Origin: a virus
Direction: 5' to 3' (one strand)
Virus record (IMG/VR): IMGVR_UViG_3300043470_000217
Span: 1 to 64,000 of that record
Length of the DNA: 64,000 nucleotides
The translations under genes and the position numbers were made by a program. The notes below the pieces were generated by a model. It saw only the letters and a program-made list of their open reading frames with translations. It searched no databases and had not been told where the DNA came from. Of the stretch, positions 22,773 through 54,640 are shown piece by piece (positions within the stretch are counted from its first letter, which is position 1; the number at the start of each line of letters is the position of its first letter).

Positions 22773-25700
22773 ATGGCAGACTTTGAAAACATTTTACCAC
22801 CGGTAGGTGTAGAGCAAGGAGTACCCAGTTCTTTTGCTGGATCAGATATGGTATTTACTGAAGGTGTAAATCCTTTACCATTAAATGTACCACTAGTTCC
22901 ATATATTGAGGATGTAAGTATACCTGCAGTTCCACAAGGTGGATTTTCAGTAAACTATGATCAGAATAATCCTTTTGATATAACTAAGCAGGTTTTAAAT
23001 TCTCCTATTACAGAATCTGATATTGTTTTTGAAAAGTCTAAAGTAAAACCATTTCAATCTGGATATCAGAAAACTAATTTTAATAGATACTATAACGATA
23101 CTGATAACTTCTATAAGTTAGGTTTTGATCCTTTATCAAATAATGATGAGATCTATAATCAGAATAGATCTTGGTATGAAGACTTAGGTAGGGGTTTATT
23201 AGGTGTTCCTGCTTTAGGATTATCCGTAGTTAAATCTAGTTACCGGGGAATGGGTGAAATGCTTACCGGTGATTTCTCTATGACAGATGAAATAGCTGCA
23301 GATGAGTTTGCTCAGATAATGGCTGAAAGAGGAAGTACCAAAGGTGGTCTTACTCAATTCTCATCTAATCTATTATTACAATCTGGTTTTGTTGCTGGTA
23401 TTTTTGCAGATTACTTAGCTACTGAAGCTGTAATTGCAGGTAGTGTAGCATTAACTGAAGGCGCAACTTTACCGGCTGCTCTTGCTGCTAGTTCAGCAAA
23501 GACAGCACAGGCTGCTAGAAGTATAGCCAGTATGCGTAACTTATTTACTGCAGCTGGTGCTAGAGATGCTTATACTGCTATTAGAGGTTTAAATGCTACA
23601 GCAGTTGGTAGAGGTATTAAAGCCGTGGGTGAAGCAGTAGTTCCAAGAACACTAAGTAATATTAAAAATACAATCAATGCTGGTGACTCTGTAATTAATT
23701 ATGCAAATGCTGCAAGAGGTATTGGTGATTTTATATTAGATCTTAAACAAGTTGGTTATACTGTTGCTGAAGCTTCTATGGAAGGTGGTGCGGTAAAGAA
23801 CGAGTTTATTGATGATAGAATTAATGAGTTCATTACTAATAATGGATACTATCCAGAACAAGAGGAAATGAACAGGATATATGAGTTGGGTTCTGATGCT
23901 GGTTTTACAACAAGTGCAATCAACACTCCTCTCATATATATTACAAATGCTATTACTTTTAATAATTTATTTAAAGGTAAATCAGCAATGTTGAATGCTC
24001 CAACAAATGATGTTATAGCTAGATCTTCTCTTACTGGAGAAAAGATTATTGCTGATACAACAGGTGCAAGAATCTTAACAGGTAAAGAGGCTGTTAAGAC
24101 ATTACTTAAACCAAAAGAATATTTAAGGTTTGGAGCTCAATACTTTAAGACAAATTTATCTGAAGGTCTTCAGGAAATCTCACAGGAGATTACAGCCGGA
24201 GCTTCTAAAGATTATTATGAGAGATTATATGAAACACCAGAAGCTGGTGGAATAAGTATTTACTTAGCTGATGCTTTTGAAAATACAAAGAAGCAAGCAT
24301 CTATGCAGGGTTTAGAAGTGTTTGCTTCTGGATTCTTAATGGGTGGTCTTACAGGTATTGCTGGTAACTTAAGTAATGTATCTAGAAGAGCTGGATCTAA
24401 TATCTATTATAACTATATAAAGAATGATCCTGAAAAGTATAATGAGTTATATAAAGCAGAACAAGATAGATTTAAACAGATTGTAGCAGAATTTGATGAT
24501 GCTATTAAAAACGGAAATAAGATTTTAACACTTGATGTAGAAAACTTATTACTACAAGCCAGACTTGGTACAGATATGGTAGATGCTAGAAAATCATTTG
24601 ATGAGAAAGCATTCCATGATCTAAAAGACATGTCTAGATTTAATGCTATTTATACAGCATTAGAGGCCGGTAAGTTTGATATCTTAGTACAGAAGTTACA
24701 AGATATGAAACAGATGACTGGTGATGAATTAAAACAGGCATTTGATTTAACAGATGATGTTACTGCTGATGAAGCAAAGCAAGTATTGGATGTAGCTATT
24801 GAAAGAGCTCAACAAATTAAAGAACAACATAAAGAGTTTGCTGATTATAGAAATCCTTTTAATCCTAATAGATTTAGAAGAACTAACCTAACTGATCCTG
24901 TAGTTAAAGAACAGTATGTAAAAGAAGTTATTAACTATAAGGCTTTTGAAGAAGCTAGAAAAATAGCTGTATTTAGTTTACATGGTAGACAGCAAGCTCA
25001 AAAGAGAATGGCTGATCTTACAGATAGACTTACTGAGATTAGTAGTTTTGGTAAACTAACTTTTTCAGATATTACTCCATTACTAAATATAAATAGTCTT
25101 CAACAAGAGTTAGATTTATTAGATAGTGAGATTAAATCTTTAACAGGCTCAACTGATAAAGAAGCTATAAAGATTCTTACTAGTAAAAAGAATAAGAAGA
25201 AAGCTTTAGAGTTATATCAAAAGAATCTTGAAAAAGCCGGAGATGTTTCAGATCCTCAAGTATTAAAAGATAAAAAGTTTTTAAGAGAAGCTTTTGTTAA
25301 ATACATTAACGCTCTTTCCCAGGAAGCTGGTATTAATTTTTCTAAGGGTCAAGCAGAAGAGGCTTATAGTATTTTAACTGATTACTATTCTTTAAATGCT
25401 GACGTTGTTCAGTTTACAGAGAACTTAAATACTTTATATGATCCTACTAGTTACTATGATTTAGTTAGTAGACTTGTAGAGCAGCAGAAGTATAGAAGAG
25501 ATAAGCAAACAGCTTATATGGAGAAATCCAGAAAAGCATTTATTAATGCTGTTAAGATTAGAGATTTTATTCAGTACTTAGCTGATGGTGGTTTTGGTAT
25601 AAAGTTATCTTCATTACCAAAAGATATAAGTAAAGACTATGATGAGTTTATTTCTACACTTGCAGATGATCTAGACATTGTATTTATTGACTTTAAATCA

Positions 25701-26753
25701 GATAGAGAATTTGATAAATCAGATGTTAGATATGTATTTGTATTAGATCTTATAAACAAGTTTAATAATATTGTAACTGAACCTGTAGCAGAAACAACTG
25801 AAGAAGTTACAGAAACAACCACTGAAGAAGAAGTAGTAGATCAACCTGCATTATCTGATGAGATAGAACAAGAGGAAGGTGTACCATTAATTCAATCAGT
25901 TAAACAGTTTAATGCTTTACCAGTTAAGTTACAAGGTCTTTTACAGGCTACATTAGCTCAACAGAATTCTAAAAGAGAAGCTGATGGTGAACCTGAGTTA
26001 CCATTAGATAGATTCTTGCGTACATCTACATCTAGAAATGCTATATCTAAATTCTTTAAAGATCCAGCTAACGCTGCAGATATTAAAGCATACAATGAGA
26101 AGAAGGGTGTACCTAAAGAAAAACCTAAAGAACCAGTTGTTGCTGAACCAGTTGTTATTGAAGAAGAAGTTATAATTACTGAACCGGTTACTGAGTTAAT
26201 TGATCCTATTGTAGAAAAGATTAAAAATGCTAACTCTATACAAGAACTTAATACCTTACAGGAAGAGTTTGAAGAGAGTGATCTTATTGAAGACCTAGAT
26301 AATATTAATGCTGTTAAAGATGCGGTAGCTTTACGTAAAGCTGAGTTAATAAAATCAATCAAGTATGAAAGTATTAAGGCCGGTGATGTATTAGTATTTG
26401 GAGATAATAAGTACGGTTTAGTTGAGAAAGTTACTACAAGTAAGTTAACAGTAGTACCTTTGTATGGTGAACGTTTGACTCCAGCAAAAGATGCTAATAA
26501 GCGTATCACTATTCTTAAAAAAGATTTTTCAAAGATGGTACAATCTGTATATGATACACAAGCCAATGTAGTAATTGGTACCAAAAATGTTCCTTCTCCT
26601 ACAGCAGAAGAGAATAAAATTATAGAGGCTAACTCTCAGAATATAGATGACTTCTTAGATAATGAAGAAGCTACTAAAAAACTTGAAGAGCAAACTCGTA
26701 ACAAATCCGATAAGGATGTAAATAATGATTTCTTTAATAATATAGGTTGTTAA
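22773..26753 (+). CDS. Large virion cargo protein with hydrophobic helices (possible membrane channel former)
   Basis: Ala/Gly-rich hydrophobic segments in the N-terminal half, SEGLQEISQ motif, coiled-coil C-terminal half; its only Cys is the last residue. Confidence 0.65.
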   Translation: MADFENILPPVGVEQGVPSSFAGSDMVFTEGVNPLPLNVPLVPYIEDVSIPAVPQGGFSVNYDQNNPFDITKQVLNSPITESDIVFEKSKVKPFQSGYQKTNFNRYYNDTDNFYKLGFDPLSNNDEIYNQNRSWYEDLGRGLLGVPALGLSVVKSSYRGMGEMLTGDFSMTDEIAADEFAQIMAERGSTKGGLTQFSSNLLLQSGFVAGIFADYLATEAVIAGSVALTEGATLPAALAASSAKTAQAARSIASMRNLFTAAGARDAYTAIRGLNATAVGRGIKAVGEAVVPRTLSNIKNTINAGDSVINYANAARGIGDFILDLKQVGYTVAEASMEGGAVKNEFIDDRINEFITNNGYYPEQEEMNRIYELGSDAGFTTSAINTPLIYITNAITFNNLFKGKSAMLNAPTNDVIARSSLTGEKIIADTTGARILTGKEAVKTLLKPKEYLRFGAQYFKTNLSEGLQEISQEITAGASKDYYERLYETPEAGGISIYLADAFENTKKQASMQGLEVFASGFLMGGLTGIAGNLSNVSRRAGSNIYYNYIKNDPEKYNELYKAEQDRFKQIVAEFDDAIKNGNKILTLDVENLLLQARLGTDMVDARKSFDEKAFHDLKDMSRFNAIYTALEAGKFDILVQKLQDMKQMTGDELKQAFDLTDDVTADEAKQVLDVAIERAQQIKEQHKEFADYRNPFNPNRFRRTNLTDPVVKEQYVKEVINYKAFEEARKIAVFSLHGRQQAQKRMADLTDRLTEISSFGKLTFSDITPLLNINSLQQELDLLDSEIKSLTGSTDKEAIKILTSKKNKKKALELYQKNLEKAGDVSDPQVLKDKKFLREAFVKYINALSQEAGINFSKGQAEEAYSILTDYYSLNADVVQFTENLNTLYDPTSYYDLVSRLVEQQKYRRDKQTAYMEKSRKAFINAVKIRDFIQYLADGGFGIKLSSLPKDISKDYDEFISTLADDLDIVFIDFKSDREFDKSDVRYVFVLDLINKFNNIVTEPVAETTEEVTETTTEEEVVDQPALSDEIEQEEGVPLIQSVKQFNALPVKLQGLLQATLAQQNSKREADGEPELPLDRFLRTSTSRNAISKFFKDPANAADIKAYNEKKGVPKEKPKEPVVAEPVVIEEEVIITEPVTELIDPIVEKIKNANSIQELNTLQEEFEESDLIEDLDNINAVKDAVALRKAELIKSIKYESIKAGDVLVFGDNKYGLVEKVTTSKLTVVPLYGERLTPAKDANKRITILKKDFSKMVQSVYDTQANVVIGTKNVPSPTAEENKIIEANSQNIDDFLDNEEATKKLEEQTRNKSDKDVNNDFFNNIGC

Positions 26754-26757
26754 TAAT

Positions 26758-29700
26758 ATGAATTGCTCACTATCTCTTCCACAGCAGCAACAGTTTTATG
26801 CTAAAGTATTTAAAGACTTATCTGTAATTACAGATAATAAAACTCCATATGATTTAAAGACTTATGTAAATGATTTTTATGAGCAAGTAGTTGCGGCAAG
26901 TAAGGATACTAGTTTAGGATTAACCTATGTACAGTTGTTACCTAGAATTATAGGAACAATTGTTAACAAGAATCCAAATATCCGTAAACACTTTAGAGAT
27001 AATAATATTAGCACTGATGATGTTTTAGATCTACGTGATAGCTTTGAAGATATCATTAATGTAGAAAAGTATATCCAGGTAAAAGAATTAACTCCTGATA
27101 AATTAGAACAGATTAGAAAGAAGGCTGGTATTGTTAGTTCTCAGTTAGAAAAAGCATCTCAAACAGATGAAGACTTAGATTTCCAAGCAAAACACTCATC
27201 TGGTTTAAATACAACTGGTCAAGAAGAAGAAGTAGACGCTGATGGTGAGTTCACCGGTGAAGCAGATCAAGATCCTGAAAAGCTTGTAACATTTGCTTTT
27301 ATCCGTTCTATTATAGATAGACTAGAGAAACAGAATCTTGAGAATGCTAATAGCATGACTATTGAAGCATCTAATGGTACTATTGTAAAAGGTATCTACA
27401 TGATACCTATAACCACCTATACAAAGACTGGTAGTGCTATTACACAATTAACTTTTGCTACATTAACCAAGGATGGTTATAAGAAGTTATTTGTAAATGA
27501 GAGAGGTAATATTACAAACGTTGAAGGAGAAGATCAAGCCGAGGGTTCTTTAAATCCAATTATAGATTTCATCACTCCTAATACAATTAATGGTAAAAGA
27601 GATTTTATATTTACCGGAACTGGTGAGACTAGTTTAGCTCCGGTTGATGAATTAGTAGAAAGAGTTATAAAGAATGCTGCTTTAAACAACTTAGAAATTC
27701 CTGATGCTACAGTATTAAAAAAACAGTTTGAAGAAAAAAGGGCTCAGGAAGTTAAGCTTGTAGACAAGTTTATCCGGACCTATATTTCTGATAAAACTCA
27801 AGTACTACCTTTAAGTATTATTGGTGGTAATTCTGGTTTTAGTTTAATGGCTGATCCAGGAACTAGATTAAGTGAAATAAAAATTCCAGGAACTTTAGAT
27901 ATAGAGTTTGGTAAAAATGGTCGTACATATATAAAGATTGGTAAGTATAGTAATAAGATTCAAGTCTTTCCTGAAAAGACATCACCAGAACTTGCACAAA
28001 ATGTTGCAAAGCTTTTAGCTGATACTAAAGTAAGTACAGCTATTAAGTTTGGTATCTTAGAAAAGATCTATAACATCAATGATGATAATTTTAATATTAC
28101 ATATGATAACACTAAAAAGAAACCAGTAATGGTTATCTACTCTGGAAAAGATGAAGTATATAACTCAGAGAATCCAGAGTTAACTGATGAAGGTTTTATT
28201 AAAGATGTTTTAGCTGGTGTTTATATAAATATCTCTAAAGAGAATATTGACGGTAGTATTCAGTTACCTGATTACACAAGTGGTAAATTAGTAAAGAGAA
28301 ATACTCCTTATAATACTTTCATTACTAGAAATAGTAAAGTCTTTGTTGCTTTACGTAATGATGGTAGTATTAAGTTCTTTAACCCTAGTTTACAGTATGA
28401 ATTCACAGTAGATGCATTAGAACAAATGTATCCAACTGAGAAGAAAGATGATAATATAGAGTTAGCTAAAGAGCTTTATAAAGAAATACTAGCTGGTAAA
28501 ATGGTTACAGAAATGACTGTAGCCCAACAAGCAATAGCTAATAAATATATTACTCCTGAGCTTAAAATAGAAGTTGAAGAAGAAATAGCTGAATCAAAAA
28601 AACCAGCTACTACTGTTAAACCAAAAGCTAAAGCTAAACCTAAGACTGTAGTTAAGAATCAGAATGTAAATACCGCACCTTCTGGTTTTAAAGGTAAGCT
28701 TGATATGGATCTTATTGATGAGATTAATAAGAGTTTAAAGAGGGCTGGATTTGAAACTGTAAATAGTACGCCAGAACAAATTGAAGAAATTAAGAACTGG
28801 TATTCTTCATTAGAAGTAATGGTTGATGGAGAGAAGGTAAAGCTATCTACTCTAATTCCTGTAAAGGAAGCCTTTGCTTTAACTAACTCAGATGTACTGG
28901 GTACATTTACATCTTCTGGTATTACGTTGTTTACAAAGGCCGGAAATAAAGATTACACCACGTTGTATCATGAAGCTTGGCACGCATTCTCTCAGTTACT
29001 ATTAACTCAAGAACAAAAGCAAGAACTATATAACTCAGTAAGAAAAGGTGTTAAGAGTTTAGCTAATGCAACTGATAAGCAAGTAGAAGAATATTTGGCT
29101 GAAGACTTTAGAGGTTATGTTTTATCTGAGGGTAAGAAAATTCTTGTTAAACCTAATGAGAATATCTTTGAAAAGTTATGGCGGATTATAAAAACATTTT
29201 TTACTGGTCAAACTGATATAGTAGATCCTACTGTTGTACCATTAGTAAAGGAGTTATATGATAATTTAAGATTGGGTAATCTATTTGAGTATCAGTACTC
29301 AGTAGATAACATGCAGTTCGGTAAACTCTATAGAGGTATTGATCCATTAAATGAAGAAGAGCCTGGTATTAGTTTAGCCTATAGTAATCTTATTAATGAA
29401 TCTATAGATGGTGCATTCTCAGAAATTATAGAAAGCTCCGGCTTAAATGTATCTGCAATCTATACAGATCCAAGAGCTTTAAATTTCTTATATAATAGTA
29501 CTAAAGATTATTTCCAGCAAGTTTTAGATGAAACTATTGCTAGAGTTGAAAATGATCCTGAAGGTACTGATACCGTAGATAGAAATAATATCCAGATACT
29601 TGAGTATGCAATCAATAATTTTGGTGACTTTAATGAAGTACTTAAAGGAACTGAAAAGAATGGTGTTATAGCATATCATAGACAAAAGTCTAAGTATCTA

Positions 29701-32700: not shown

Positions 32701-35700
32701 AATGCTATTGAAAAACAGTTGGTTGCTATTATTGAAAGAAAGATTGTTAGACCAACAGTTAGAGGAGAACAATTAGTACAAGTATCTAGTTCCGGATTTG
32801 AAAAACCTAGGTTTACAAAACCAACTGATGAAGAGTTATTAAAGTATGGTACAAATGGTCTTGCCTTTTATGATATTGTAAATGGTAAAATTACAGCCAT
32901 GCAAGTTAAAATTGCATTACAAGGAGACTTCTTAAAACTTCTTGCATTAACTCATACAGATGGTAATAAAATACTTACTAGAGAAAGACTTAATGAAATG
33001 CTTAAGGACAATACATGGAAAGAACGCAACGGTGATGCTATCAAAATGATGGGTGTGCGTATTCCAGTACAAGGTCTTAACTCTATTGAATACATGGAGA
33101 TTGCAGAGTTCTTACCTGCAGAAGCTGGTAGTATTGTTATTGTTCCTACTGAATTAGTTGCTAAGTCAGGTGGTGACTTTGATATTGATAAGTTAAGTAT
33201 ACTAATGCCAAACATCAGTATTAGTACTAATGAATTACTTATATTAGAAGAAGAAACTGGTTTAGATCTTTCAGATACTATTAATTTTGAAGCTGGTGTA
33301 ACAGCTGATGATACCAATATAAGAAACATTGAGAATGAGATACTTAAGTCTATGATTGCAATTATGGAACTTAAGGAAAATTTCTTACAACTTATTACAC
33401 CTAACGAAACAGATATTGTTAAACCAATTGCAGATAAGTTAGCCCAGTTTAATAGAGAGTATGATGCTAGAAAAAAGACAGTTAACCAAGATGCATCATT
33501 TAAAACTATATCTCCTACAAGAATATTTGAAACAGAGTACAATCTTTATAAGCACGAGTCTAATAACATTGGTAAAATTACATTAGGTATTGGTGCTGTA
33601 TCAAACAAATACTCAGTTATCTTAAACCGTGTAGGAGCTTATTTAAATAAAACATATTCTTTCCTTGATAACAAAGGAAAGAAAAAGACTGCTAAGAACC
33701 GCATACTCCTTAAACATAATAAGTCTGATAAGCAGATTTCTTTATCTGATTTAAAATCAGAGGATGCTGCGCATTATATTTCAGATGTAATTTCTCAGCT
33801 TATGAATGGTTGGGTGGACATTGAAAAAGATGCATGGGTATTTGATATGAATGCCATCTATGAATTATCACCAGTATTGTTATATATGTTACAAGCCGGT
33901 GTTAATGTAGAGACTGCTGCTTATTTCTTATCTCAACCTATGATCCGGGATTATATTTCTACGTATAGAGTATTAAACGGAATGTATAGCAAGTCTTTAG
34001 ATACAACTGAAGATAGTGCTAAAGGTGCTGGATTCTTAAAGTATAAAGCAAAGAATTATATAATTAATAAGTATGGTATTTTTGATGCAGATCATAAAGC
34101 ACAACTTAAAAAATTAATAAAGGACCCTTTCTTACTTAAGCAATTGTATCAAGCAAACAGTGGAAAAAATCCATTAGGTGGTAGAAAATCTATAACTCCT
34201 GCTGTAGACATTATGGTTAAAGCATATAATGTATTTGCATTATCTGATAAGAACGTAAAAGACATAGTAGAAAATTATGATACTAAAAGTCCTCTAGCTA
34301 AATTATCATTCTTACATTTCTTAGAGATGGAAGATCAATCTAAAGTAATGAGAGAGATTTCTTCTTCTACTAACGTAGATACAAAGAAGTCAGGTAACTT
34401 ATTCCAAGCTAAGAGTAGAATTACTAAGTTAGAAGATTTAGAAGGTGGTGCTAGACTTCCAGAAGAAGTTGTAAAGAAAATACAAGAGCAATCATCTATT
34501 GCACCATTCTTTATTCAGGATTATATCTTAAATCTATTTAAAGATTATTTTCCGCTGAGAGCTAGTGATAAAATAAATGGTTACTTAACTGATCTTATTA
34601 ATACTAACTACAATGAAATCTATGAAACCTATGGTGATGTAGAAAAGTTTGTAGAGTTGTTTAGAAATGATCTGTTGCAGTTTATCATACAGAACAGTAT
34701 TGGTAGTGTAAATATTAACACTGTTAAAGATTACAAAGGATATAGTGTTAGCGATTCTATTGCAGTAGAAAAAGTAAGAGGTCTTAAAAGAAGTGCTGTT
34801 TACTTAGATGGTGTTATATACATTGATAGAGCCAAGCTACGTGATGAGTATAATAAGAAGACTTATTCTAAAGCATCATATGAAGAAACTGGTTTAGCTA
34901 AATTACCTGGAGATAGGCGCACTGATGTAATTCCTTTGTTTACTTCTGAAAAGCAATATGCTGCATTTGTACTTGAAAGAGAATATCTAAGAGGTACAAG
35001 AGAGCAAGGTGATTTAGCTGATGATCTATATGAAAGCTCTTTAGTTGATGATGCTTTAGCAAACATATACAATCTTAAGACTATGTTCTTTGGAAGTAAT
35101 AGTTTTCCAGATAAATATGAAGCTATAAAATCTATTGTAGGAGAAGATAAGTATTTGTTATTCAATTACTTAGTTTATGATTCACAAGCAATTAAGACTG
35201 CTGGTAAAAACACAGTTATTAAGAATTTACGTTTAACCGGTGATGTTAAAGATCCAGATTTCTTAGCATCTTTAAATGCAGAGTTTGAAGAGTTATCAGA
35301 TGTTACAGTAAATAAAGTTTCTGACCCAATGCTTAACAGAGAGATTTCAGAGTTCTTCCAAAAATTATCTGTATACGGATTTATGCAGTCTGGTATGAAT
35401 TCATCATACTTATCATTTGTACCTATTCTTTCTAGTAATAACTTTAAAGATATTATTAAAACTAATATTGAAGAGTTTACTAAAGTGATTGAAGGTGATA
35501 ATGGTAATACTGCATTGTATAGATATAACCAGGTATTTGAAAAGCAAAACTCTAGAAAGAATAATATCAAGTATAGATTTAAAAACTATGTTATAGATAG
35601 CGTTATTAGCAAGATGGGTGATCCTATTCCAAAACTTCCAGAAGGAACAGCTAGTACCATGACTCCTAGAATATATACATTTAAGTATAATAAGATGGGT

Positions 35701-36291
35701 ATTATTGGTTACATAAATAAATACCCCGGACTTATTGGTGTATACAATGGAGCTAAAGATGGTAGCGGTACTAATGTTATTGCTTCTGATACTTATATGG
35801 GTAATACAAATAAAGTAACTGGTACAACTATACCATTACCAATATTTGAATCTTATGTAGGTAAACCTCAGTATTTAAATTCTGCTAATGCTGCTGATAA
35901 CATTAAACTTGTACAAGATAGTATTGCACAACTTCTAGAAATGTATGAAGCTGGTAAGACATTATTGTTTAATCAAGATGGTTATGGTATTTTTAATGAT
36001 GATCCTAACATAGATCGTAATGCATACATGGAGTTATCTAAGGAATTATACTATAACTTTGGATATTTAAATCCTGTTTTTGCACAAGATCCTGACTTTA
36101 TGGAGTATATTTATTCTGTACAACCTATTAATCAAATCTTTGAAGAAGATTTAGAAATTGCTTCTGATCAAAATGATATCATTGTAGAAGAAACAGATGC
36201 TACTATAATTGATGAGAATGCAAAACCAGTTAATACGTATGCCCCTTTAGGATATCCAGAAGTTGAAGATAAAACAAATGATAGTTGCTAG
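26758..36291 (+). CDS. Virion-associated crAss-like DNA-dependent RNA polymerase with N-terminal zincin domain
   Basis: RIPVQGLNS...GGDFDIDK catalytic motif (nt 33175-33192), DGQGW, and HEAWH...EEYLAE zincin (nt 28969-28983), as in phi14:2 gp66-type RNAPs. Confidence 0.9.
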   Translation: MNCSLSLPQQQQFYAKVFKDLSVITDNKTPYDLKTYVNDFYEQVVAASKDTSLGLTYVQLLPRIIGTIVNKNPNIRKHFRDNNISTDDVLDLRDSFEDIINVEKYIQVKELTPDKLEQIRKKAGIVSSQLEKASQTDEDLDFQAKHSSGLNTTGQEEEVDADGEFTGEADQDPEKLVTFAFIRSIIDRLEKQNLENANSMTIEASNGTIVKGIYMIPITTYTKTGSAITQLTFATLTKDGYKKLFVNERGNITNVEGEDQAEGSLNPIIDFITPNTINGKRDFIFTGTGETSLAPVDELVERVIKNAALNNLEIPDATVLKKQFEEKRAQEVKLVDKFIRTYISDKTQVLPLSIIGGNSGFSLMADPGTRLSEIKIPGTLDIEFGKNGRTYIKIGKYSNKIQVFPEKTSPELAQNVAKLLADTKVSTAIKFGILEKIYNINDDNFNITYDNTKKKPVMVIYSGKDEVYNSENPELTDEGFIKDVLAGVYINISKENIDGSIQLPDYTSGKLVKRNTPYNTFITRNSKVFVALRNDGSIKFFNPSLQYEFTVDALEQMYPTEKKDDNIELAKELYKEILAGKMVTEMTVAQQAIANKYITPELKIEVEEEIAESKKPATTVKPKAKAKPKTVVKNQNVNTAPSGFKGKLDMDLIDEINKSLKRAGFETVNSTPEQIEEIKNWYSSLEVMVDGEKVKLSTLIPVKEAFALTNSDVLGTFTSSGITLFTKAGNKDYTTLYHEAWHAFSQLLLTQEQKQELYNSVRKGVKSLANATDKQVEEYLAEDFRGYVLSEGKKILVKPNENIFEKLWRIIKTFFTGQTDIVDPTVVPLVKELYDNLRLGNLFEYQYSVDNMQFGKLYRGIDPLNEEEPGISLAYSNLINESIDGAFSEIIESSGLNVSAIYTDPRALNFLYNSTKDYFQQVLDETIARVENDPEGTDTVDRNNIQILEYAINNFGDFNEVLKGTEKNGVIAYHRQKSKYLAFEAKVLDAEEDKSNPVDSFERTGNDKSLKELASKQALYMVKSLYQVNSKGEPVKNRLGFNKLVDFSKAWSTVSKTLINSTSFDEVYTKLIELEASFPEAAQLIVKLGDPSQSQNSNANFKRWLGFTQTFNKTVVPITEQRISVQDAVDDEPRKVSTLIQRATSDTNKIANTFRSKFVVNRGKYVIRKKGSLPILNINKVLEDFPSVNKYNVFKFLKAIGFYLDNNKTLLAALENSILDRKSKDTFIQYDYIIEALEKAKEDKIIISDPIRFFRDPKLGNQSGTVSKLLTLQARYSASDFNTSIMNPEGNMEYETQQRNSLSQIIDGFNKLTNINQMIEDPEFEHLSVYYPSNNPYAKNSYIIKSLFDEAGNRRKDVILSLENLSGIRSDLNGITVEGIKTNKLNKYDKFLFDVHAIILGATPELPRHASKSSSFGIYMSKYYTENGVDNLILSIKDTARYGHDAAMPMILNYLSAELERMWYVNNIPSLQNVDSLKKNGNKIVAFDSVLTKATKDKLYKLVEDAGSIDDITYSDELEKDIFKDSLAYFSGQVKNNYKIWTKISNVMGSVLLSPEIRNKIAEETRIAKGLDKGNKFANDSQAQLELVNQVFTYNSWFNNYETQLLYGDASQFLHDKEEFHKRNASIASTGEFSILDDYTTNYLNATSNNTYAESIGLNKPIFKSDVNTTVLDDAEPNSVYYDHYKKILLDQGVPESRVETILKPYKGIKEGDGQGWITFDFYRNFLRSLNKWSDAQEELYNQVINDPESVDPKKVSEFFPVLKASYYGPLKTEKLNVSGLHKFSLMPLIPSVIKGTNLEQFHKQLIEQNIAYALYKSGSKISTITLEDGTIPKMYTDLNNRDLYTGPYAVNPINLNFFKNQLDIAPYFKSKVTLASQLRTIIETNLYEKGEPITKEAGVVVKRYEKSIDSYVKYYKQKLFKEVGLEFNASGKLVKGDPKDLIKAIQKELIRLEVPEHQMDILDVNEDGTLKYDFDSIINSNAIEKQLVAIIERKIVRPTVRGEQLVQVSSSGFEKPRFTKPTDEELLKYGTNGLAFYDIVNGKITAMQVKIALQGDFLKLLALTHTDGNKILTRERLNEMLKDNTWKERNGDAIKMMGVRIPVQGLNSIEYMEIAEFLPAEAGSIVIVPTELVAKSGGDFDIDKLSILMPNISISTNELLILEEETGLDLSDTINFEAGVTADDTNIRNIENEILKSMIAIMELKENFLQLITPNETDIVKPIADKLAQFNREYDARKKTVNQDASFKTISPTRIFETEYNLYKHESNNIGKITLGIGAVSNKYSVILNRVGAYLNKTYSFLDNKGKKKTAKNRILLKHNKSDKQISLSDLKSEDAAHYISDVISQLMNGWVDIEKDAWVFDMNAIYELSPVLLYMLQAGVNVETAAYFLSQPMIRDYISTYRVLNGMYSKSLDTTEDSAKGAGFLKYKAKNYIINKYGIFDADHKAQLKKLIKDPFLLKQLYQANSGKNPLGGRKSITPAVDIMVKAYNVFALSDKNVKDIVENYDTKSPLAKLSFLHFLEMEDQSKVMREISSSTNVDTKKSGNLFQAKSRITKLEDLEGGARLPEEVVKKIQEQSSIAPFFIQDYILNLFKDYFPLRASDKINGYLTDLINTNYNEIYETYGDVEKFVELFRNDLLQFIIQNSIGSVNINTVKDYKGYSVSDSIAVEKVRGLKRSAVYLDGVIYIDRAKLRDEYNKKTYSKASYEETGLAKLPGDRRTDVIPLFTSEKQYAAFVLEREYLRGTREQGDLADDLYESSLVDDALANIYNLKTMFFGSNSFPDKYEAIKSIVGEDKYLLFNYLVYDSQAIKTAGKNTVIKNLRLTGDVKDPDFLASLNAEFEELSDVTVNKVSDPMLNREISEFFQKLSVYGFMQSGMNSSYLSFVPILSSNNFKDIIKTNIEEFTKVIEGDNGNTALYRYNQVFEKQNSRKNNIKYRFKNYVIDSVISKMGDPIPKLPEGTASTMTPRIYTFKYNKMGIIGYINKYPGLIGVYNGAKDGSGTNVIASDTYMGNTNKVTGTTIPLPIFESYVGKPQYLNSANAADNIKLVQDSIAQLLEMYEAGKTLLFNQDGYGIFNDDPNIDRNAYMELSKELYYNFGYLNPVFAQDPDFMEYIYSVQPINQIFEEDLEIASDQNDIIVEETDATIIDENAKPVNTYAPLGYPEVEDKTNDSC

Positions 36292-36293
36292 TT

Positions 36294-39200
36294 ATGAGTA
36301 AGTGTAGATTAGATATACAAAATGACGTATTAAAAACGTACAAGAAAGCATTAGCTAAAGAGGTTGGTCAATTTTTATCTCCAACTGATAGTTTAAGTAC
36401 ATTTTATGTAAATGCCGAAGGTAATACACAAGTAGGTTCTGCAGCTATTGCAAAAGCTGTATTAGAATTAAACCAATATTGGAGAACAAATATGGCTGAG
36501 TTTATTACTTGGGATGGTGACTCTAGAGTATTTGTTAATCCACCTAAGTATGTTGTAGATCATTATTGGGAAGTATATAAAAAGAATAATGATATAACTG
36601 AAGAAAGTCCGGAGTATTACCGTGTTGGTGATGAAGACTTTTTAAATAGCTTATTTCCTTCTGTAGAAATACAAGAAACAGCTAAAGCTCAAGAGATAGC
36701 AACTAAGTTTGCTAATAATCTAGCAGCTCAGACAGGTATCAATTATAAAATGATATCTCCTGAAAAAGCTTCTGAGCTTACAAAAGATACAACTGCTCCC
36801 TGGAATGGTGAACCAGCTTTCTATTATCAAGATACTGTATACTTTATTGAGAATGGATTTAAATTAAATCAAGTATTACATGAATATGCTCACCCAATTG
36901 TTAGAAGTTTATACTTAAACAATTATGATTTATTTAATAATCTATATAATCAGATTATCAGTACTGAAGAAGGTGCAGCAATTGTAAATACGGTTACTGA
37001 ATTATATCCTGAATATGCTATAACTGATCCAAACTTTGCCCAGGAAGTATTTGTAAGAGCTTTAGAACAAGCAGCTGTACAAAAAGCTAATAAGATATCT
37101 TCTAGCACCGGATTTAATTCTTTTATTTCTAATCTATTATTTGCAATTAAGCAGTTAATAAGAAAAGTATTTGGTAAAGGTGTTAAGGTTGAAAAGTTAT
37201 CTGTAGATACTACATTAGATCAATTAGCAGATATGTTAGTTGGTGAGAACTTTATTCTTACAACTGAAGTTATTACACCACAAGATCTAGTTTTATACTC
37301 AAAGAATAATAAAACTCTTTATGCTGATTTAGATAAAGTAAATACTGATGCCCTTGTACAAGTAGTCAATAGATTCTTTTCTAATTCTAAATCTCAATTA
37401 AGCAGAATTAGAACTAATAAAAACTATTCTGACTTTGTAGATACCATTACAACTGAGTCTGGACGTTCTATACTTAAAGATATTGTAGATAATTTACGTG
37501 TTGCTGAAACCACTACAGTAGATGACAAAGTAAAGAAATTTAAGGATGATATAGATAAGAGAGAAAAACAGATTGTTTCACTTGTAAGAAGCTCATTACA
37601 AACAGATGTATTATTAGATAGAATAGTTGATAAGCTTTCAGATATGCAAAGTATGTCTGATACAAAAGAGGTTATCAATCAGACTTTCTACTATGATATC
37701 TTATTACGTAACTGGAACAAGTTTATACAAGAGACTATTAATGGTTTAACAGATTCTGGATTACGTACAGATAGTTCTTTATTTGCATTGTTTTCTAGAA
37801 TGTCTAAGAAAGCAGAACAAGCCGATAGACTTATTAATAATATCTATAAGAAAGGTGTTGGTGGAATTTTAACAGAACAGATAGAACCACTAGCTAAAAA
37901 CGTAGATAAATACTTTACTGATAAACTTGATCTTCTTAAATCTAAGAATGCTCCTCAAAGAGAAATAGAGAAAGTAAAAGCAGAGTGGGAAAGATTAAAA
38001 CTAAACCGTGCTACAATTGATGATTACTTATCAGGTATGCGTGGTGATGTAAATGCTTTATCTGCATATGTAGAAAGTTTTGCCAGCTCACCAGATCCTA
38101 TCATATCAAGCTTCTCTGTATTTTTAGATAATGCATATACAGATGTAGAATTAAAAGCTAAGAAGAATAAGGATGATTTCTTGAATGATCTTTTACCTGC
38201 ATTAAAAGAAGCAGGATACTCTGATAAGAATATATCTGAGCTAATGCAAGAACTAACCTTTGAAGAAGAAGTAGTTATACGTGATAGAGATGGTAACGCT
38301 AAAACATTTAAGAAGTTAGTATTACTTAATCCATTTAAAGCTTTTGAAAAAGTTATTAGTCAGTTTCAATTTGATATTGAAGATGCTAAGAGACTTGGTG
38401 ATATAGAAAAAGCTAGATTACTTAATAAGCAGTTCAGACAATTCTCTCGTGACTATATGCATGATGAGTTTGTACCTGAGTTTTATACTAAAGAAAAGAT
38501 CTATGATTCTGAATTAGGTTCTGTTATCTATCAAAGAAAGCAAGACATCTTAGCTGATATTGCTGATATAGATCAGAGAGTATTTGAAGATCTTACAGAG
38601 GAAGATGCATTTGAAGAAAAGAAAATACTTTGGAAGAAGTATAGTCAGTTAGCTTCTCTGCGTGATGAAGCCGGTAAATTAAAAACTGGTGATGAGTTAG
38701 AGATGGCTAAGATTGAAAAGCAGTATAGAGATGAGTCTAGAAAGTTCTATGAATGGAAAGAGATAACCGGTTTATTTGAGTTTAAATTAAATCAGTTTAA
38801 ACAAGACTTATTAGATCAAGGTCTTACCGTAGACTCTGAAGAGTTTAAAGATAATGTCAATGACTGGATAGATGCTAATACAAGAGTTTCTATTAAGTCA
38901 GAGTTCTATGATAAGAAGCAAGCTATCTTAACAAAGATTAAAGCTATTACTGATACACTTCCTGCAAATGTTGCTAGTAAAGTTGAACAAGGAAAGTTAT
39001 GGGAAGAGTTAATTGATATTGTTATTGGTTTTAGAGATGATGATGGTCAACCTGTAGGATCAGAGATGTCTGAAGAAAGACTTAAACGGATTAAAGAACT
39101 TCAAGAAGAGATCTTAAAGATTAAGAATAACATGGCCACATTTAGTGGTTTAAGTAAATTGCAGTTTGAAAGATATCTAGAGCTTGCAAAACTAATCAAG

Positions 39201-41852
39201 AGCAAAAGAGCTAGTATAAAAGATAAAGAAGAGTTTAAAGAGTTAGATAACATCAAAGGTGAAAATGGTGTAGATGCACTTACACAAAAAGCTTTAAAGC
39301 GATTGTATAGTGAGTTAGCAGATATGCAATATAAATCTCCTACAGATGATTACTTTAGTGTTTTCAATACTAAGTTAGAGGCTATTGATCAAACTAAACT
39401 TGCAAACTTCTCTGTATCAGAAATCAACATAGATAACTATGATAACTTTTTAAAGCCTGGTTTCTTATCTAAGTATTTTAAAGCTAGTCCTGAGTTTAAA
39501 GAATGGTTTTTAGCAAACCACATTATGACTGAGAGGTATAACTATAAGACTAAGAAAGAAGAGAGAGTTTATGAAAGATTATATGTTTGGAGTGTAACTC
39601 AACCAGCTAATGAAGAAGATTACAATACTTATAAGTACAATGATGTAAATCCATCTACCGGTGAGATTACTGAAGTTACTTTAGATAAAATACCAAAGAT
39701 AGACTTCTACAGAAGAGCTGTTAAAAAACAATACAGAACCGGCTATAATAAAGCAACTGATAAAGTAGAGCGTCAAGTAGGTGTACATGTAGATAATAGA
39801 GGTAACTGGTTACCACGTACAATGGCACAAGGTGCTAAAGATGATTCCTATATTAACAAAGCTTACTTTGATCTTAAAAAGAATAGTCCGGCAAAGGCAA
39901 AAGTCCTTGATACAATTGTAAAGTATACATTGTTATTCCAGGAAGATAAAACTAAGTATGGAAAACTGTACTTAGATGTACCTAGATTCAGAAAGCTTAA
40001 GAGCGAATTAGTAGGTGGTAGTTTAAATAGAAGTGCTGCTAAAGTTAAAACCTTTATCAAACAAGTAAAAGATTCTGTTACTAAAACAGAGGATGATTTT
40101 GATCAAGGCTTTAACTATGAAGATTCATTTAACTTAGTAAGAGCAGACATGTTTGATGAAGAGATTTCTTCTATTCCAGTAAAAGGATTGTATAAGTTAG
40201 ATGTAGATCAGGTATCATTAAATGTACCATACTCTATGTTGCAGTACATGTTCTCATTAGAACACCAGAAAAAGCTTATTGAATTAAATCCAATAGCTCA
40301 AGCTTTACAGAAAGTTGTATCTAATCCTGAAAATACTATTAAAGATACTTCTAAGGTAAATGGATACAACTGGGCAACTAATAATATCAAATCTTATCTA
40401 CCTAAGAAAGGAAAGAATGTAAGAGCTGAAGCAATTAATACTTTAATTGAAAGAGAGTTTAAAGGTCAAACTAGAGTTGGTTGGTTATCAGAACCAACTA
40501 GCTTAAGTAAAGCTGTAGATATTTTACAATCACAGTCTACTTTTGCAATGTTTGCATTTAATGTTTTACCATCAGCATTTAAAAACTTTGGTGGTGCTGT
40601 TACACAGATGATCATTGAATCAGGTGGTGGTAAGTATCTTAACAAGCGTTCTTACTTACAAGGTCAGAGTAGAGCATTAAAAATAATGACTGATATCTCA
40701 GCTAATATTTATAATCCTGGTGAGAAAAGTATTGATTATCAATTAGTTGAGATCTTTGATCCTATTAAAGGTAGATTCCAAGAACGTTTTGGTGCTGAGT
40801 TTGGTAGATCAATTGGTACTGATTTAGCTGATAGTCTTATGCTAGGTGCTGGTAAGAGTAGATCTAATGGTGTATCTACTGCGCCTAGAAAGTGGTTAGA
40901 AAATGAAGGAACACTTTCTTTGTTTGCCGGTATGATGATCTTTAAAAAAGTACCACAGACTATTAATGGCCAAACTAATATGATCAATTACATAGATGCT
41001 TGGGAAAAAGATGGTCAGGGAATTATTAAATTAAAACCAGGTATTGATGAGACTTATGCTCCGGGTGGTGAAGAGTTTAAATTAATGCGTAATAGCATAC
41101 AGGAAACTAGTAACAACCTACAAGGTGCTTATTCATTAATGGATAAAGTAATGCTTGATAGATATGCAGTATGGCGGATGTTCTCAGGACTAAGACGTTT
41201 CTTTACAAGGATGTTTGTAAACAGATTTAGTCCTTTAAGATATTCTCAGCGTACTGGTAATATGACTGAAGGTTATTATAGATCATTTGCTATATTCTTA
41301 AAAGACTTTGTTTCTAGAGCTTCTTCTGGTAACATGTATATGACTGATAATGAAACCTATGCAACTAAGAAAGTATTAACTGAAGGTATAAGTATTACAT
41401 TACTAGCTCTTATGATTGCTTATCTATTTGGATATGATCCAGATGATGAAGATAGATTTGAAAAGATGCGTGAAAGAAGTGGTGATTTATTATCAGATGA
41501 CTTTAATGCCGGTGGTTGGTTAGTTAACCACGGTTTAGTTGTAGCACTTGGAACAAGACAGGAAACTATTACTTTCTTAAATCCTAGGGAATACGTTGGT
41601 TTAGTTTACTCAGGAGGCGCTCCAACATTGGGCCCTGTAGTAGATAAGTATAAAGACGTAGGTGTAAACTTAATGCACTTACTTACTAATGATAACCGTG
41701 CTTATTATACTAGAGATGTAGGACCTTATTCTTGGCAAAAAGAAAATGCACCTAAAATCTTCAATGATCTTGGATATTTATTTGGATTCACTGGTAATCA
41801 AGTTGATCCAGTTAAAGCTTTGAAAGGTGTAGAGTTCCAAACTAGAAGATAA
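36294..41852 (+). CDS. Large virion cargo protein with zincin HExxH domain
   Basis: HEYAH at 36879-36893; helical body; C-terminal hydrophobic helix. ATG 36294 (MSKC) preferred over TTG 36285. Confidence 0.7.
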   Translation: MSKCRLDIQNDVLKTYKKALAKEVGQFLSPTDSLSTFYVNAEGNTQVGSAAIAKAVLELNQYWRTNMAEFITWDGDSRVFVNPPKYVVDHYWEVYKKNNDITEESPEYYRVGDEDFLNSLFPSVEIQETAKAQEIATKFANNLAAQTGINYKMISPEKASELTKDTTAPWNGEPAFYYQDTVYFIENGFKLNQVLHEYAHPIVRSLYLNNYDLFNNLYNQIISTEEGAAIVNTVTELYPEYAITDPNFAQEVFVRALEQAAVQKANKISSSTGFNSFISNLLFAIKQLIRKVFGKGVKVEKLSVDTTLDQLADMLVGENFILTTEVITPQDLVLYSKNNKTLYADLDKVNTDALVQVVNRFFSNSKSQLSRIRTNKNYSDFVDTITTESGRSILKDIVDNLRVAETTTVDDKVKKFKDDIDKREKQIVSLVRSSLQTDVLLDRIVDKLSDMQSMSDTKEVINQTFYYDILLRNWNKFIQETINGLTDSGLRTDSSLFALFSRMSKKAEQADRLINNIYKKGVGGILTEQIEPLAKNVDKYFTDKLDLLKSKNAPQREIEKVKAEWERLKLNRATIDDYLSGMRGDVNALSAYVESFASSPDPIISSFSVFLDNAYTDVELKAKKNKDDFLNDLLPALKEAGYSDKNISELMQELTFEEEVVIRDRDGNAKTFKKLVLLNPFKAFEKVISQFQFDIEDAKRLGDIEKARLLNKQFRQFSRDYMHDEFVPEFYTKEKIYDSELGSVIYQRKQDILADIADIDQRVFEDLTEEDAFEEKKILWKKYSQLASLRDEAGKLKTGDELEMAKIEKQYRDESRKFYEWKEITGLFEFKLNQFKQDLLDQGLTVDSEEFKDNVNDWIDANTRVSIKSEFYDKKQAILTKIKAITDTLPANVASKVEQGKLWEELIDIVIGFRDDDGQPVGSEMSEERLKRIKELQEEILKIKNNMATFSGLSKLQFERYLELAKLIKSKRASIKDKEEFKELDNIKGENGVDALTQKALKRLYSELADMQYKSPTDDYFSVFNTKLEAIDQTKLANFSVSEINIDNYDNFLKPGFLSKYFKASPEFKEWFLANHIMTERYNYKTKKEERVYERLYVWSVTQPANEEDYNTYKYNDVNPSTGEITEVTLDKIPKIDFYRRAVKKQYRTGYNKATDKVERQVGVHVDNRGNWLPRTMAQGAKDDSYINKAYFDLKKNSPAKAKVLDTIVKYTLLFQEDKTKYGKLYLDVPRFRKLKSELVGGSLNRSAAKVKTFIKQVKDSVTKTEDDFDQGFNYEDSFNLVRADMFDEEISSIPVKGLYKLDVDQVSLNVPYSMLQYMFSLEHQKKLIELNPIAQALQKVVSNPENTIKDTSKVNGYNWATNNIKSYLPKKGKNVRAEAINTLIEREFKGQTRVGWLSEPTSLSKAVDILQSQSTFAMFAFNVLPSAFKNFGGAVTQMIIESGGGKYLNKRSYLQGQSRALKIMTDISANIYNPGEKSIDYQLVEIFDPIKGRFQERFGAEFGRSIGTDLADSLMLGAGKSRSNGVSTAPRKWLENEGTLSLFAGMMIFKKVPQTINGQTNMINYIDAWEKDGQGIIKLKPGIDETYAPGGEEFKLMRNSIQETSNNLQGAYSLMDKVMLDRYAVWRMFSGLRRFFTRMFVNRFSPLRYSQRTGNMTEGYYRSFAIFLKDFVSRASSGNMYMTDNETYATKKVLTEGISITLLALMIAYLFGYDPDDEDRFEKMRERSGDLLSDDFNAGGWLVNHGLVVALGTRQETITFLNPREYVGLVYSGGAPTLGPVVDKYKDVGVNLMHLLTNDNRAYYTRDVGPYSWQKENAPKIFNDLGYLFGFTGNQVDPVKALKGVEFQTRR

Positions 41853-42183: not shown

Positions 42184-42885
42184 ATGGCTTATGTCTACAG
42201 ACATATCAGGTTAGATAAAAATGTACCTTTCTATATTGGATTAGGTACAGATTCTAATTATTCTAGAGCACACCAAACTAAAAGTAGAAATCAACACTGG
42301 CATAATGTTGTAAAAAACTCTGGGTATAGAGTAGAAATTATGTTAGATGATTTGTCTTTTGAAGAAGCTTGTGCTAAAGAAATAGAACTGATAAGTATGT
42401 ATGGCAGAATAGATACTTGTGGAGGTACTCTTGTTAATTGGACTGATGGAGGTCAAGGTACTTTAGGTTGGAGACATGAAGTTGGATACTGGACAGGAAA
42501 ATCTTTACCAGAATCTATGCGTAAGAATCTATCTGAAGTAGCTAAATTAAGAGTGGGAAAAAAGAACCACTTTTATGGAAAGAATCATTCTGAGGAAACA
42601 AAAGAAAAACTTAGACAGAGTAGATTAGGTAGCACCCTTACAGAAGAAACTAAACTTAAGATAAAAGAGTCTTTAAAGAACTCTGAAGCTTTTAAGAATA
42701 GAAAACATTCAGTAAGACTTGGTGCAGATAATCCTAAGTCTAAACAAGTAATCAATACTGAAACAGGAGAGATTTATGAGAATCTCAGAATTGCTTCAGA
42801 GATTACTGAAATAAGTTACAACAAGTTAAGATCTTACTGCCAAGGAAAAGTTAAAAGCAAGACTAACTGGAATTATCTACTATAA
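42184..42885 (+). CDS. GIY-YIG-like homing endonuclease with NUMOD3 repeats
   Basis: YVYRH...FYIGLG...R...E...LVNWTDGGQG nuclease domain; NHFYGKNHSEETKEKLR NUMOD3; C-terminal NUMOD1-like HTH. Confidence 0.8.
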   Translation: MAYVYRHIRLDKNVPFYIGLGTDSNYSRAHQTKSRNQHWHNVVKNSGYRVEIMLDDLSFEEACAKEIELISMYGRIDTCGGTLVNWTDGGQGTLGWRHEVGYWTGKSLPESMRKNLSEVAKLRVGKKNHFYGKNHSEETKEKLRQSRLGSTLTEETKLKIKESLKNSEAFKNRKHSVRLGADNPKSKQVINTETGEIYENLRIASEITEISYNKLRSYCQGKVKSKTNWNYLL

Positions 42886-43496: not shown

Positions 43497-43946
43497 ATGA
43501 GGGGGTTATTAGTTAACCTCTTATTATTCTTAGCCGTCCCTTGTTTTGGTCAGATGAAAATTGACAAAGCAGGGGACGGTTGGGATTTAAAAGTTGATTC
43601 AGCAATTCAACTTATAAAGAGAGTAGACATAGCTAAGTATAAGCTGCTTGATACAAACTGTCATCAGGTATCTTTTATGATTAGTCCCTACTCTTCATGT
43701 TTATTAGAGAATGGTTTGGGACATATTTACATAGCTGTAGATGACATTAAACTAAACTCTATAAACAATATTGCTGTAGTGCTAATACATGAGAGTCTCC
43801 ACTTGTATATAGCCAAACTGGGTATAGCACTTATACCCGAAAAAGAAGAGACATTTTGCTATATGTATGAATTAAGCTTCATAAGTAAATTAGAAAATCC
43901 AGAGCCTTGGCTCACAGAACACGCTATAAATAACATAAAAAAATGA
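43497..43946 (+). CDS. Secreted HExxH metallopeptidase-like protein
   Basis: Signal peptide ending CFG|Q; LIHESLH followed by EETFCY. Confidence 0.55.
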   Translation: MRGLLVNLLLFLAVPCFGQMKIDKAGDGWDLKVDSAIQLIKRVDIAKYKLLDTNCHQVSFMISPYSSCLLENGLGHIYIAVDDIKLNSINNIAVVLIHESLHLYIAKLGIALIPEKEETFCYMYELSFISKLENPEPWLTEHAINNIKK

Positions 43947-54256: not shown

Positions 54257-54284
54257 AAAGAAACCCTCCTTTTTAGGGGAGGGT
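54256..54284 (-). terminator. Terminator at the convergence of + and - transcription
   Basis: ACCCTCC/GGAGGGT stem (54263-54284) followed on the - strand by TTCTTTTT. Confidence 0.65.
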
Positions 54285-54324
54285 CAGTCAAGGGATACTA
54301 TCCCAAGAGGGGTTCAAGTTCTTT

Positions 54325-54615
54325 TTACCAGATGATGGCAACATCTTGCTCACCAACCATAATCTTAATACCTGCATCAGGCATTTCAATAATCTCTGCG
54401 TTTTGCAAGACAATGGTAGGAATATAAACTTTATCTCCAACTACTACTTCGGTGACATCTTCACCAACAGCAAATACTTCAAGATTAGTCCATTTTTTCA
54501 TTAAGTCAGCGTCAATCTCTGCTTGTTGTGCAGCAGTAAGTTCAATACCGCTTTTTTCTTTGTGGGGTTTGCTAAGAAGTATTCTTCTACCTCTTAATTT
54601 TTTAAAGTTGCTCAT
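54325..54615 (-). CDS. groES: GroES-like co-chaperonin
   Basis: LRGRRILL...SGIEL...VFAVGEDV..VVVGDKV...EQDVAII is a Cpn10 pattern. Confidence 0.75.
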   Translation of the reverse strand: MSNFKKLRGRRILLSKPHKEKSGIELTAAQQAEIDADLMKKWTNLEVFAVGEDVTEVVVGDKVYIPTIVLQNAEIIEMPDAGIKIMVGEQDVAIIW

Positions 54616-54640
54616 ATGCTTTGTTGTTTTTTTTGTTTAA

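Follow-up and report, generated by a model that had tools for sequence, protein, structure and literature searches.

Three giant consecutive proteins of a crAss-like phage were found to carry cysteine (Cys) residues only where the end of one protein faces the start of the next, and these facing residues are very probably paired functional elements of a head-to-tail assembly. The proteins are encoded in a 64,000-nucleotide stretch of DNA, positions 1–64,000 of the IMG/VR virus record IMGVR_UViG_3300043470_000217 (hereafter the window), and comprise a first protein (P1), a second protein identified by homology as the virion RNA polymerase (RNAP), and a third protein (P3). Together they have only four Cys in 6355 residues, and the two outer ends (the N-terminus of P1 and the C-terminus of P3) have none. 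It is also likely, at a lower level of confidence, that the three proteins form a linear P1–RNAP–P3 thread joined by disulfides. The features of this module in the window are as follows (aa, amino acids; HMM, hidden Markov model).

22773–26753, + strand: P1, first link, 1326 aa; its sole Cys is the last residue
26589–26750, + strand: C-terminal tail of P1 (residues 1273–1326), predicted interface with the RNAP head; codon of Cys1326 (TGT) at 26748–26750
26758–36291, + strand: virion RNAP by homology, middle link, 3177 aa; Cys at residues 3 and 3177 only
26761–27069, + strand: N-terminal head of the RNAP (residues 2–104), predicted contact with the P1 tail; codon of Cys3 (TGC) at 26764–26766
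28378–29214, + strand: conserved HExxH module of the RNAP (residues 541–819, motif at 738), from an HMM match
33175–33189, + strand: DFDxD catalytic motif of the RNAP (residues 2140–2144), from alignment A1
36211–36288, + strand: last 26 residues of the RNAP, the remnant tail of a 583-aa fourth link found in relatives, ending in Cys3177 (codon TGC at 36286–36288)
36294–41852, + strand: P3, last link, 1852 aa when read from the ATG at 36294 (the mechanical reading frame begins at TTG 36285); sole Cys at residue 4 (codon TGT at 36303–36305); HExxH at residue 196

The original prediction, made from the sequence alone, had counted four Cys in the trio (the last residue of P1, residue 3 and the last residue of the RNAP, and residue 4 of P3), with none at the outer termini or in the two upstream cargo proteins that start at 16843 and 20194. 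Translation of every open reading frame (ORF) of at least 150 aa in the window bore out all of these counts, with 0 Cys in each upstream protein. The 26 other window ORFs, which are mechanical ORFs and not verified genes, contain 98 Cys in 10,871 residues (9.0 per 1000), a rate at which the trio should have about 57 Cys and the five large proteins about 75. If the four Cys were scattered randomly over the 6355 residues, the probability of every one landing no more than four residues from a facing end, with a different end for each, would be approximately 4e-12.

The middle protein had been taken for an RNAP in the original prediction, and this assignment is supported by homology. Its middle part matches 77 crass-like records in tblastn, including gp66 of phage phi14:2 (E = 1e-18), and a blastp test of homology to crassvirus RNAPs gave E = 3e-23. 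Alignment A1 with phi14:2 gp66 and crAss001 gp50 shows no variation at residues D2140, F2141, D2142, and D2144; identity to the RNAPs of cultured crassviruses is just about 23–29%, over part of the protein. The gene order of the module is that of phi14:2 and crAss001, in which both flanks of the RNAP are large and the module lies downstream of the ring, muzzle, and cargo genes. The positional counterparts of P1, RNAP, and P3 are gp67, gp66, and gp65 in phi14:2 and gp47, gp50, and gp49 in crAss001. P3 has a weak blastp match to crAss001 gp49 (E = 4e-6). In blastp, window P1 did not directly match gp67 or gp47, and its assignment is based on position and Cys pattern, with the P1-like proteins of the family linking up. 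None of the five large proteins (the trio and the upstream 1098-aa and 855-aa proteins) had a match in Pfam or PHROG, and phmmer searches of P1, RNAP, and P3 against PDB sequences found nothing. Judged by homology, the presence of a DFDxD homologue and of its large flanking proteins places the trio in the Crassvirales virion RNA-polymerase module.

A census of relatives provides the main evidence that the facing Cys belong together. A profile of five RNAPs identified 80 further IMG/VR loci (22–74% identity), which were combined with the window and phi14:2. One locus (L071) lacks an RNAP ORF and was dropped, and the remaining 81 loci were clustered at 90% core identity into 68 groups, with 13 near-duplicates merged. 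The census was confined to genomes without altered genetic codes, and crAss001, cr111_1, cr118_1, and cr110_1 were looked at separately. A Cys was defined as terminal when located within the first 8 or last 10 residues. Six of the 68 loci for the junction between the RNAP and the next protein, and 14 of the 68 for that between P1 and the RNAP, could not be evaluated due to contig ends or the lack of a neighboring ORF in range. The counts at the two junctions are as follows.

RNAP and next protein, 62 of 68 loci evaluable: both Cys in 62, neither in 0, RNAP Cys only in 0, upstream Cys only in 0
P1 and RNAP, 54 of 68 loci evaluable: both Cys in 41, neither in 12, RNAP Cys only in 1, upstream Cys only in 0

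The terminal placement and pairing sought in orthologous trios were thus found in 62/62 and 41/54 loci, respectively. The "RNAP Cys only" case is L086, in which the P1 Cys lies 19 residues from the end. Among the 12 "neither" cases, 11 are single ORFs of 3760–4798 aa with the DFDxD motif located approximately 3000–3700 residues in, and in 10 of these 11 a P1 match is collinear within the first 900 residues. On these sequence features, the 11 long ORFs are identified as P1–RNAP fusions, and Cys are lacking at the position of the break. In the twelfth case (L101, positions 10380–10900), the frames of the P1-like and RNAP ORFs overlap next to six consecutive T, and neither end has a Cys. About 80 codons without a stop precede the first ATG in the RNAP frame. 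This locus is probably a frameshifted fusion, the cause being an indel from assembly or, alternatively, programmed frameshifting within a fused gene. In other words, wherever a gene break could be evaluated it has the facing Cys, and where the genes are unbroken these Cys are missing. On a tree of the RNAP core (one core of <450 aa omitted), the fused state without Cys and the split state with Cys require four changes, at least three of which are forced by well-supported branches, indicating that the coupling of the Cys pair to the gene break arose several times.

The same census provides further details on the ends and interiors of the chain proteins. Among complete loci, the chain has two links in 12, three in 26, and four in 3. 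Apparent Cys at the outer ends were observed at the N-end of the first link in 3/53 and at the C-end of the last link in 1/55, all at contig-truncated loci. These loci aside, no first link has a Cys at its N-end and no last link has one at its C-end. Interior Cys are rare, with 27 in 419,549 residues of 177 chain proteins (0.064 per 1000), and the other, mechanically called ORFs of the same loci have 268 in 25,595 residues (10.5 per 1000). The N-end Cys occupies residue 3, 4, 5, or 6 and never residue 2, and the P3-like proteins have it at 3–6 in 62/62 evaluable loci. The C-end Cys lies 1–9 residues from the end (once 19), and the P1-like proteins carry a single Cys there. Both codons are used for terminal Cys (178 TGT and 34 TGC). 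In alignment A2 (41 sequences, last 200 residues of P1), the sole near-invariant column is that of the terminal Cys, and in alignment A3 (41 sequences, first 500 residues of the RNAP), C3 is the sole invariant column; mean column identity in these two alignments is 15–16%. The Cys pattern is retained at 22–30% identity. In nine loci, gene-bearing insertions of 0.5–1.8 kilobases separate the RNAP from P3, and the Cys pair persists there as well. Moreover, the HExxH-module HMM matches within the RNAP ORF in 52 loci, and in crAss001 this module is located in gp47 (residues 2012–2208, 133 residues before the gp47 end), upstream of the break in that phage. The placement of this module differs between the window and crAss001, such that the break falls on different sides of homologous sequence, with Cys at the break each time. 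The Cys pair tracks the proteins and their chain ends, not gene order, strand, a DNA signal, or a domain.

Two further observations concern the P3-like proteins. Cys-Pro-Asn, followed some residues on by Glu-Trp, is a recurrent start of these proteins (L023–L102), and Cys-Pro-Asn is present in 19/62 heads. A shifted RNAP–P3 break in L039 relative to L037 was considered and rejected, as it had no blastp support.

The window itself holds a record of the loss of one link. Its close IMG/VR relatives (66–94% identity) retain the terminal Cys pattern, and most of them have an extra protein of about 583 aa between the RNAP and P3. The only two Cys of this protein lie at residue 4 and three residues short of the end, and the RNAP of these relatives has its C-end Cys one residue from the end. 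In the four-link chains of L023 and L067, the extra link likewise has both terminal Cys. The window RNAP corresponds to residues 1–3115 of the L001 RNAP followed by the last 26 residues of the 583-aa protein, these 26 being 77% identical to residues 556–581 of that protein in L007 and L023. Sequence comparison therefore indicates that a deletion gave rise to the window RNAP, eliminating at once the C-end Cys of the RNAP itself and the N-end Cys of the 583-aa link; one link was lost with exactly one Cys pair. The tail retained by this deletion carries the Cys that faces P3.

Cultured and named crassviruses show the pattern in the following forms.

phi14:2 (Steigviridae): gp67, sole Cys at the last residue; gp66, Cys at 3 and 2179 of 2180; gp65, sole Cys at 3
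crAss001 (Steigviridae): gp47, sole Cys third from the end; gp50, Cys at 5, 1334, and 2404 of 2412; gp49, sole Cys at 5
cr111_1 (Steigviridae): gp032, sole Cys third from the end; gp033, Cys at 5, third from the end, and at three interior sites; gp034, sole Cys at 3
cr118_1 (Suoliviridae): P1 fused into gp14 (4946 aa), which has a C-end Cys and four interior Cys; gp15, sole Cys at 3
cr110_1 (Intestiviridae): gp39, Cys second from the end; gp40 (4417 aa, RNAP-bearing), seven Cys, the first at residue 17, with no C-end Cys

The terminal-Cys rule spans at least three families and is looser in the gut lineages sampled; its strict form may belong to environmental lineages. PhiCrAssBcn19 is a relative of crAss001 and added nothing new. 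The phi14:2 and crAss001 modules resemble that of the window in having a homologous RNAP with DFDxD, the same place after the muzzle and cargo genes, and Cys restricted to termini, whereas the P1/RNAP break of crAss001 lies elsewhere relative to the HExxH module. In addition, crAss001 gp47 is encoded on the strand opposite to gp50 and gp49, and its Cys pairing nonetheless follows the rule. Both gp39 and gp40 of cr110_1 have more interior Cys, and gp40 appears, from its length and the position of its DFDxD motif, to be an RNAP fused with a P3-like part. The gp14 of cr118_1 combines HExxH and DFDxD in one ORF. Like the split module, such fused "polyprotein" forms (the 11 loci with P1 and RNAP in one ORF and cr118_1 gp14) have the same domains in the same order, but there a peptide bond makes the link and no Cys pair exists. 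This comparison suggests that continuity itself is what is conserved across the fused and split forms. The module proteins of phi14:2 and crAss001 have been detected in virions by mass spectrometry and are reported to be ejected (Drobysheva et al., preprint; Bayfield et al., 2023).

Structural modeling of the terminal peptides, which had been proposed as a check, was performed for the P1–RNAP junction. The last 140 residues of P1 and residues 1–500 of the RNAP were modeled together, each with its own unpaired alignment. The P1 tail was placed on the RNAP head with an ipSAE interface score of 0.65 (runs 0.69, 0.60, and 0.65), and the best of three controls scored 0.00. The score mark was reached by 58/80 solved complexes and 2/110 mismatched pairs, counts that hold only roughly here given the use of own alignments. 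At least 69% of contacts were common to the runs, and the partner had a pLDDT (predicted local distance difference test) of at least 65. The modeled interface joins P1 residues 1273–1326 with RNAP residues 2–104, with both Cys inside. The P1 tail is thus predicted to dock on the RNAP head.

A structural precedent for such a link comes from an unrelated podophage. In cyanopodophage A4 (Anabaena phage A-4L), cryo-electron microscopy revealed a disulfide between gp27 Cys1715 and gp26 Cys5; the C-terminal helix of gp27 inserts into gp26, and a "chain reaction" on ejection was proposed (PNAS 2025, PMC12002296). In the A-4L genome, gp27 (1717 aa) has its sole Cys at 1715 and gp26 (1114 aa) has its sole Cys at 5, and the other ejection proteins are poor in Cys (gp29 none, gp28 two). 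The likeness to the crassvirus module lies in consecutive large ejection proteins, with a sole Cys near the C-end of one and a sole Cys at about residue 5 of the next. A4 differs in having one link between two proteins, a T7-like core stack, and no polymerase, whereas the crassvirus module has two to three links in a row, under an order-wide rule that is coupled to gene fission and fusion. In the available text of the A4 paper, the link is not framed as a general rule of end-to-end chaining (PMC12002296). When A4 gp26–gp29 were compared by phmmer with the RNAPs of the 68 loci and with the proteins encoded upstream and downstream of them, no match was obtained at an E-value of 0.01, so the likeness is one of working and not of descent, and the precedent is an analogy. 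The original prediction had also stated that no description of such a chain was known. This holds for Crassvirales, for which the limited collection of literature searched has no description of a terminal-Cys or disulfide chain, but one such link has been published in A4.

Coliphage N4 (NC_008720) provides a second comparison. Like the crassvirus module, N4 has a giant capsid-borne polymerase that is ejected with helpers from neighboring genes, and it shows extreme Cys avoidance: gp52, gp51, and the virion RNAP gp50 have 0 Cys in 150 + 644 + 3500 residues (4,294). Without terminal Cys, this ejected set can have no covalent link of this kind, and Cys avoidance occurs there without links. Cys avoidance may be general for ejected proteins. 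According to the discussion of the N4 paper, the N4 polymerase is of a type unrelated to that of crassviruses.

In the proposed mechanism, the three proteins, which are the RNA-polymerase module of this crass-like phage, would be packed in the capsid, with each gene break bridged after translation. The C-terminal tail of one protein would dock on the N-terminal head of the next, and the single Cys of each would form an inter-protein disulfide once the particle is in oxidizing conditions. The result would be one unbranched thread, P1-S-S-RNAP-S-S-P3, of about 6,350 residues, in which the joins would add almost no side branch given that the Cys lie few residues from the ends. This thread could cross the narrow tail channel partly unfolded and in single file, the near-absence of other Cys would prevent wrong cross-links, and the reducing cytoplasm would cut the links and free the polymerase. 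Bayfield et al. (2023) viewed the crAss001 cargo as partly unfolded on exit and considered the exit order "likely controlled" by packing and mutual interactions. The original prediction had interpreted the facing Cys as bonds of an ordered chain that is threaded out and then released by reduction. This interpretation is supported insofar as the facing terminal Cys behave like functional pairs, as judged from their coupling to gene breaks, their independence of gene order and strand, the conserved columns, and the predicted docking. A disulfide is what we infer as the simplest chemistry, by analogy with A4; the order of threading and the reductive release we infer only.

Several points weigh against this interpretation. 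The rule is loosened by the seven Cys of cr110_1 gp40, in which the head Cys lies at 17, and by the interior Cys of cr118_1 gp14 (four), cr111_1 gp033 (three), and crAss001 gp50 (one), as well as by the distant P1 Cys of L086 (19 residues from the end). The docking model is a prediction that was made with own, unpaired alignments for the P1–RNAP junction only, and its output gives no Cys–Cys distance. The A4 precedent is an analogy from proteins without similarity to those of crassviruses. Virion mass spectrometry of crAss001 covered both reduced and non-reduced samples, and the available text reports no such link (Bayfield et al., 2023); the same text has nothing on the termini of gp47, gp49, and gp50. 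Furthermore, the host cytoplasm is reducing, so the bond would be possible only after assembly or release, and in anoxic habitats its formation lacks an obvious route. Finally, the Cys counts alone fit a linear chain and other pairings alike.

Among the alternative explanations, the one that fares best, while still unlikely, is that the ends dock non-covalently and that the Cys remain reduced or share a metal ion, in which case they would form a plain interface or a metal bridge. The docking seen in the model needs no bond, the particles are assembled in reducing cytoplasm, many hosts live without oxygen, and the HExxH motifs indicate that metal sites occur in module proteins. Yet each terminus has one conserved Cys and no other conserved ligand column nearby in alignments A2 and A3, and two thiols are too few for the usual tetrahedral metal site. 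In addition, the same signature corresponds to a disulfide in A4 (PMC12002296), and disulfides are found elsewhere in crAss001 particles, in the tail, the gp57 dimer, and the portal vertex (Bayfield et al., 2023).

Disulfides of another topology are a less probable explanation again. The RNAP may be closed from its N- to its C-terminus with P1 and P3 joined to each other, or like ends may form homodimers. These arrangements are compatible with the Cys counts and with the several copies of each protein estimated per particle (Bayfield et al., 2023). However, the model puts the P1 tail on the RNAP head, and the tail that was retained in the window deletion is the one that precedes P3 in relatives. 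Homodimers would also leave the both-or-neither rule at breaks and the Cys-free outer ends without reason, and a closed ring could presumably not pass the channel in single file.

A shade more improbable is that the terminal Cys mark another reaction, such as proteolytic maturation, enzymatic ligation, or attachment to another part of the virion. HExxH modules are present, and the phi14:2 preprint suggested that fused forms are cleaved by a zincin-like protease; its available text contains neither "cysteine" nor "disulfide" (Drobysheva et al., preprint). Against such a reaction, Cys are entirely missing from the fused proteins at the site corresponding to the break, so they do not belong to a cleavage site that polyproteins retain. 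The 0–8 residues beyond the C-end Cys (once 18) are too few for an intein-like or other catalytic fold, and the outer ends, contig-truncated loci aside, never bear a Cys. Split inteins with trans-splicing were rejected for a similar reason: intein halves need tens of residues, and there are 0–8 (once 18) after the C-end Cys and 2–5 before the N-end Cys.

The idea that the pattern is random, or that it merely follows from some nucleotide signal where genes meet (translational coupling, for example), deserves almost no credence: although the window genes abut within 2–4 bases, the window pattern has the minute chance given above and is retained at 22–30% identity, it holds across opposite strands (crAss001) and inserted genes, and the Cys vary in position (heads 3–6; tails 1–9 from the end) and in codon. 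Two other candidates were discarded. Lipobox or prenylation-type signals do not fit Cys placed 3–6 residues from the start and 1–9 from the end, and stop-codon readthrough was ruled out by genes in different frames and, in crAss001, on different strands.

The module belongs to a crassvirus tail-and-cargo block that occupies 6900–41852 on the + strand of the window. The other features of this block are as follows.

6900–7559, + strand: CrAss_Ring_2 (Pfam)
7559–8422, + strand: CrAss_Ring_1 (Pfam)
8422–13080, + strand: muzzle protein, crAss_MUZ (Pfam)
13102–15210 and 15212–16837, + strand: two adjacent proteins with DUF5872 matches
16843–20139, + strand: 1098-aa protein, probable cargo and not a chain member; 0 Cys, downstream of the muzzle and ring genes
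20194–22761, + strand: 855-aa protein, probable cargo and not a chain member; 0 Cys, none terminal

Counterparts of the 1098-aa protein in relatives are mostly without Cys, and those of the 855-aa protein in close relatives also have 0 Cys. The DUF5872 proteins have just two close-set Cys each (90 and 105; 442 and 445), and these Cys are missing in some relatives. Directly after P3, a NUMOD3 (homing-endonuclease type) protein is encoded at 42184–42885 (+). A 631-aa Cys-free protein that is kept in relatives is encoded at 43943–45838 (+). It combines a cohesin domain with a C-terminal sorting domain of the type IX secretion system (Por_Secre_tail); such a sorting tail on a phage gene points to a Bacteroidota host and to export of the protein by the infected cell. 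A C-type lectin domain protein is encoded at 48662–49648 (+). At approximately 54,000–55,000, the coding strand and the guanine–cytosine skew change sign, from the late + block to a – block that includes a PD-(D/E)XK nuclease.

For crassviruses, it is an unsolved problem how, and in which order, megadaltons of folded protein get through the narrow tail of a podophage. One terminal disulfide link was already known from phage A4; what appears new here is the multi-link, order-wide, and break-coupled form of the same Cys signature in Crassvirales. A broader reading, which we put forward tentatively as falling somewhat short of probable, is that the Crassvirales polymerase module is one thread of 6,000–9,000 residues in which breaks are healed by single disulfides. 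It would be a polyprotein with redox-cleavable joints, which exits the capsid as a single string and is then split into working parts, including the RNA polymerase, by the reducing cytoplasm of the host; gene fission and fusion would be neutral provided that every break is marked by a Cys pair, and strict Cys avoidance, which N4 and A4 also show, would be a general design rule for ejected proteins. If true, a covalent and redox-reversible chain would fix both the 1:1:1 stoichiometry and the order of the proteins, the first protein could pull the next, and contact with the cytoplasm would trigger release of the enzyme with which infection begins. The rule of a sole Cys at facing ends could also be used to flag chained ejection proteins in uncultured phages, and the "three subunits" and "polyprotein" forms of this module would become one entity in annotation.

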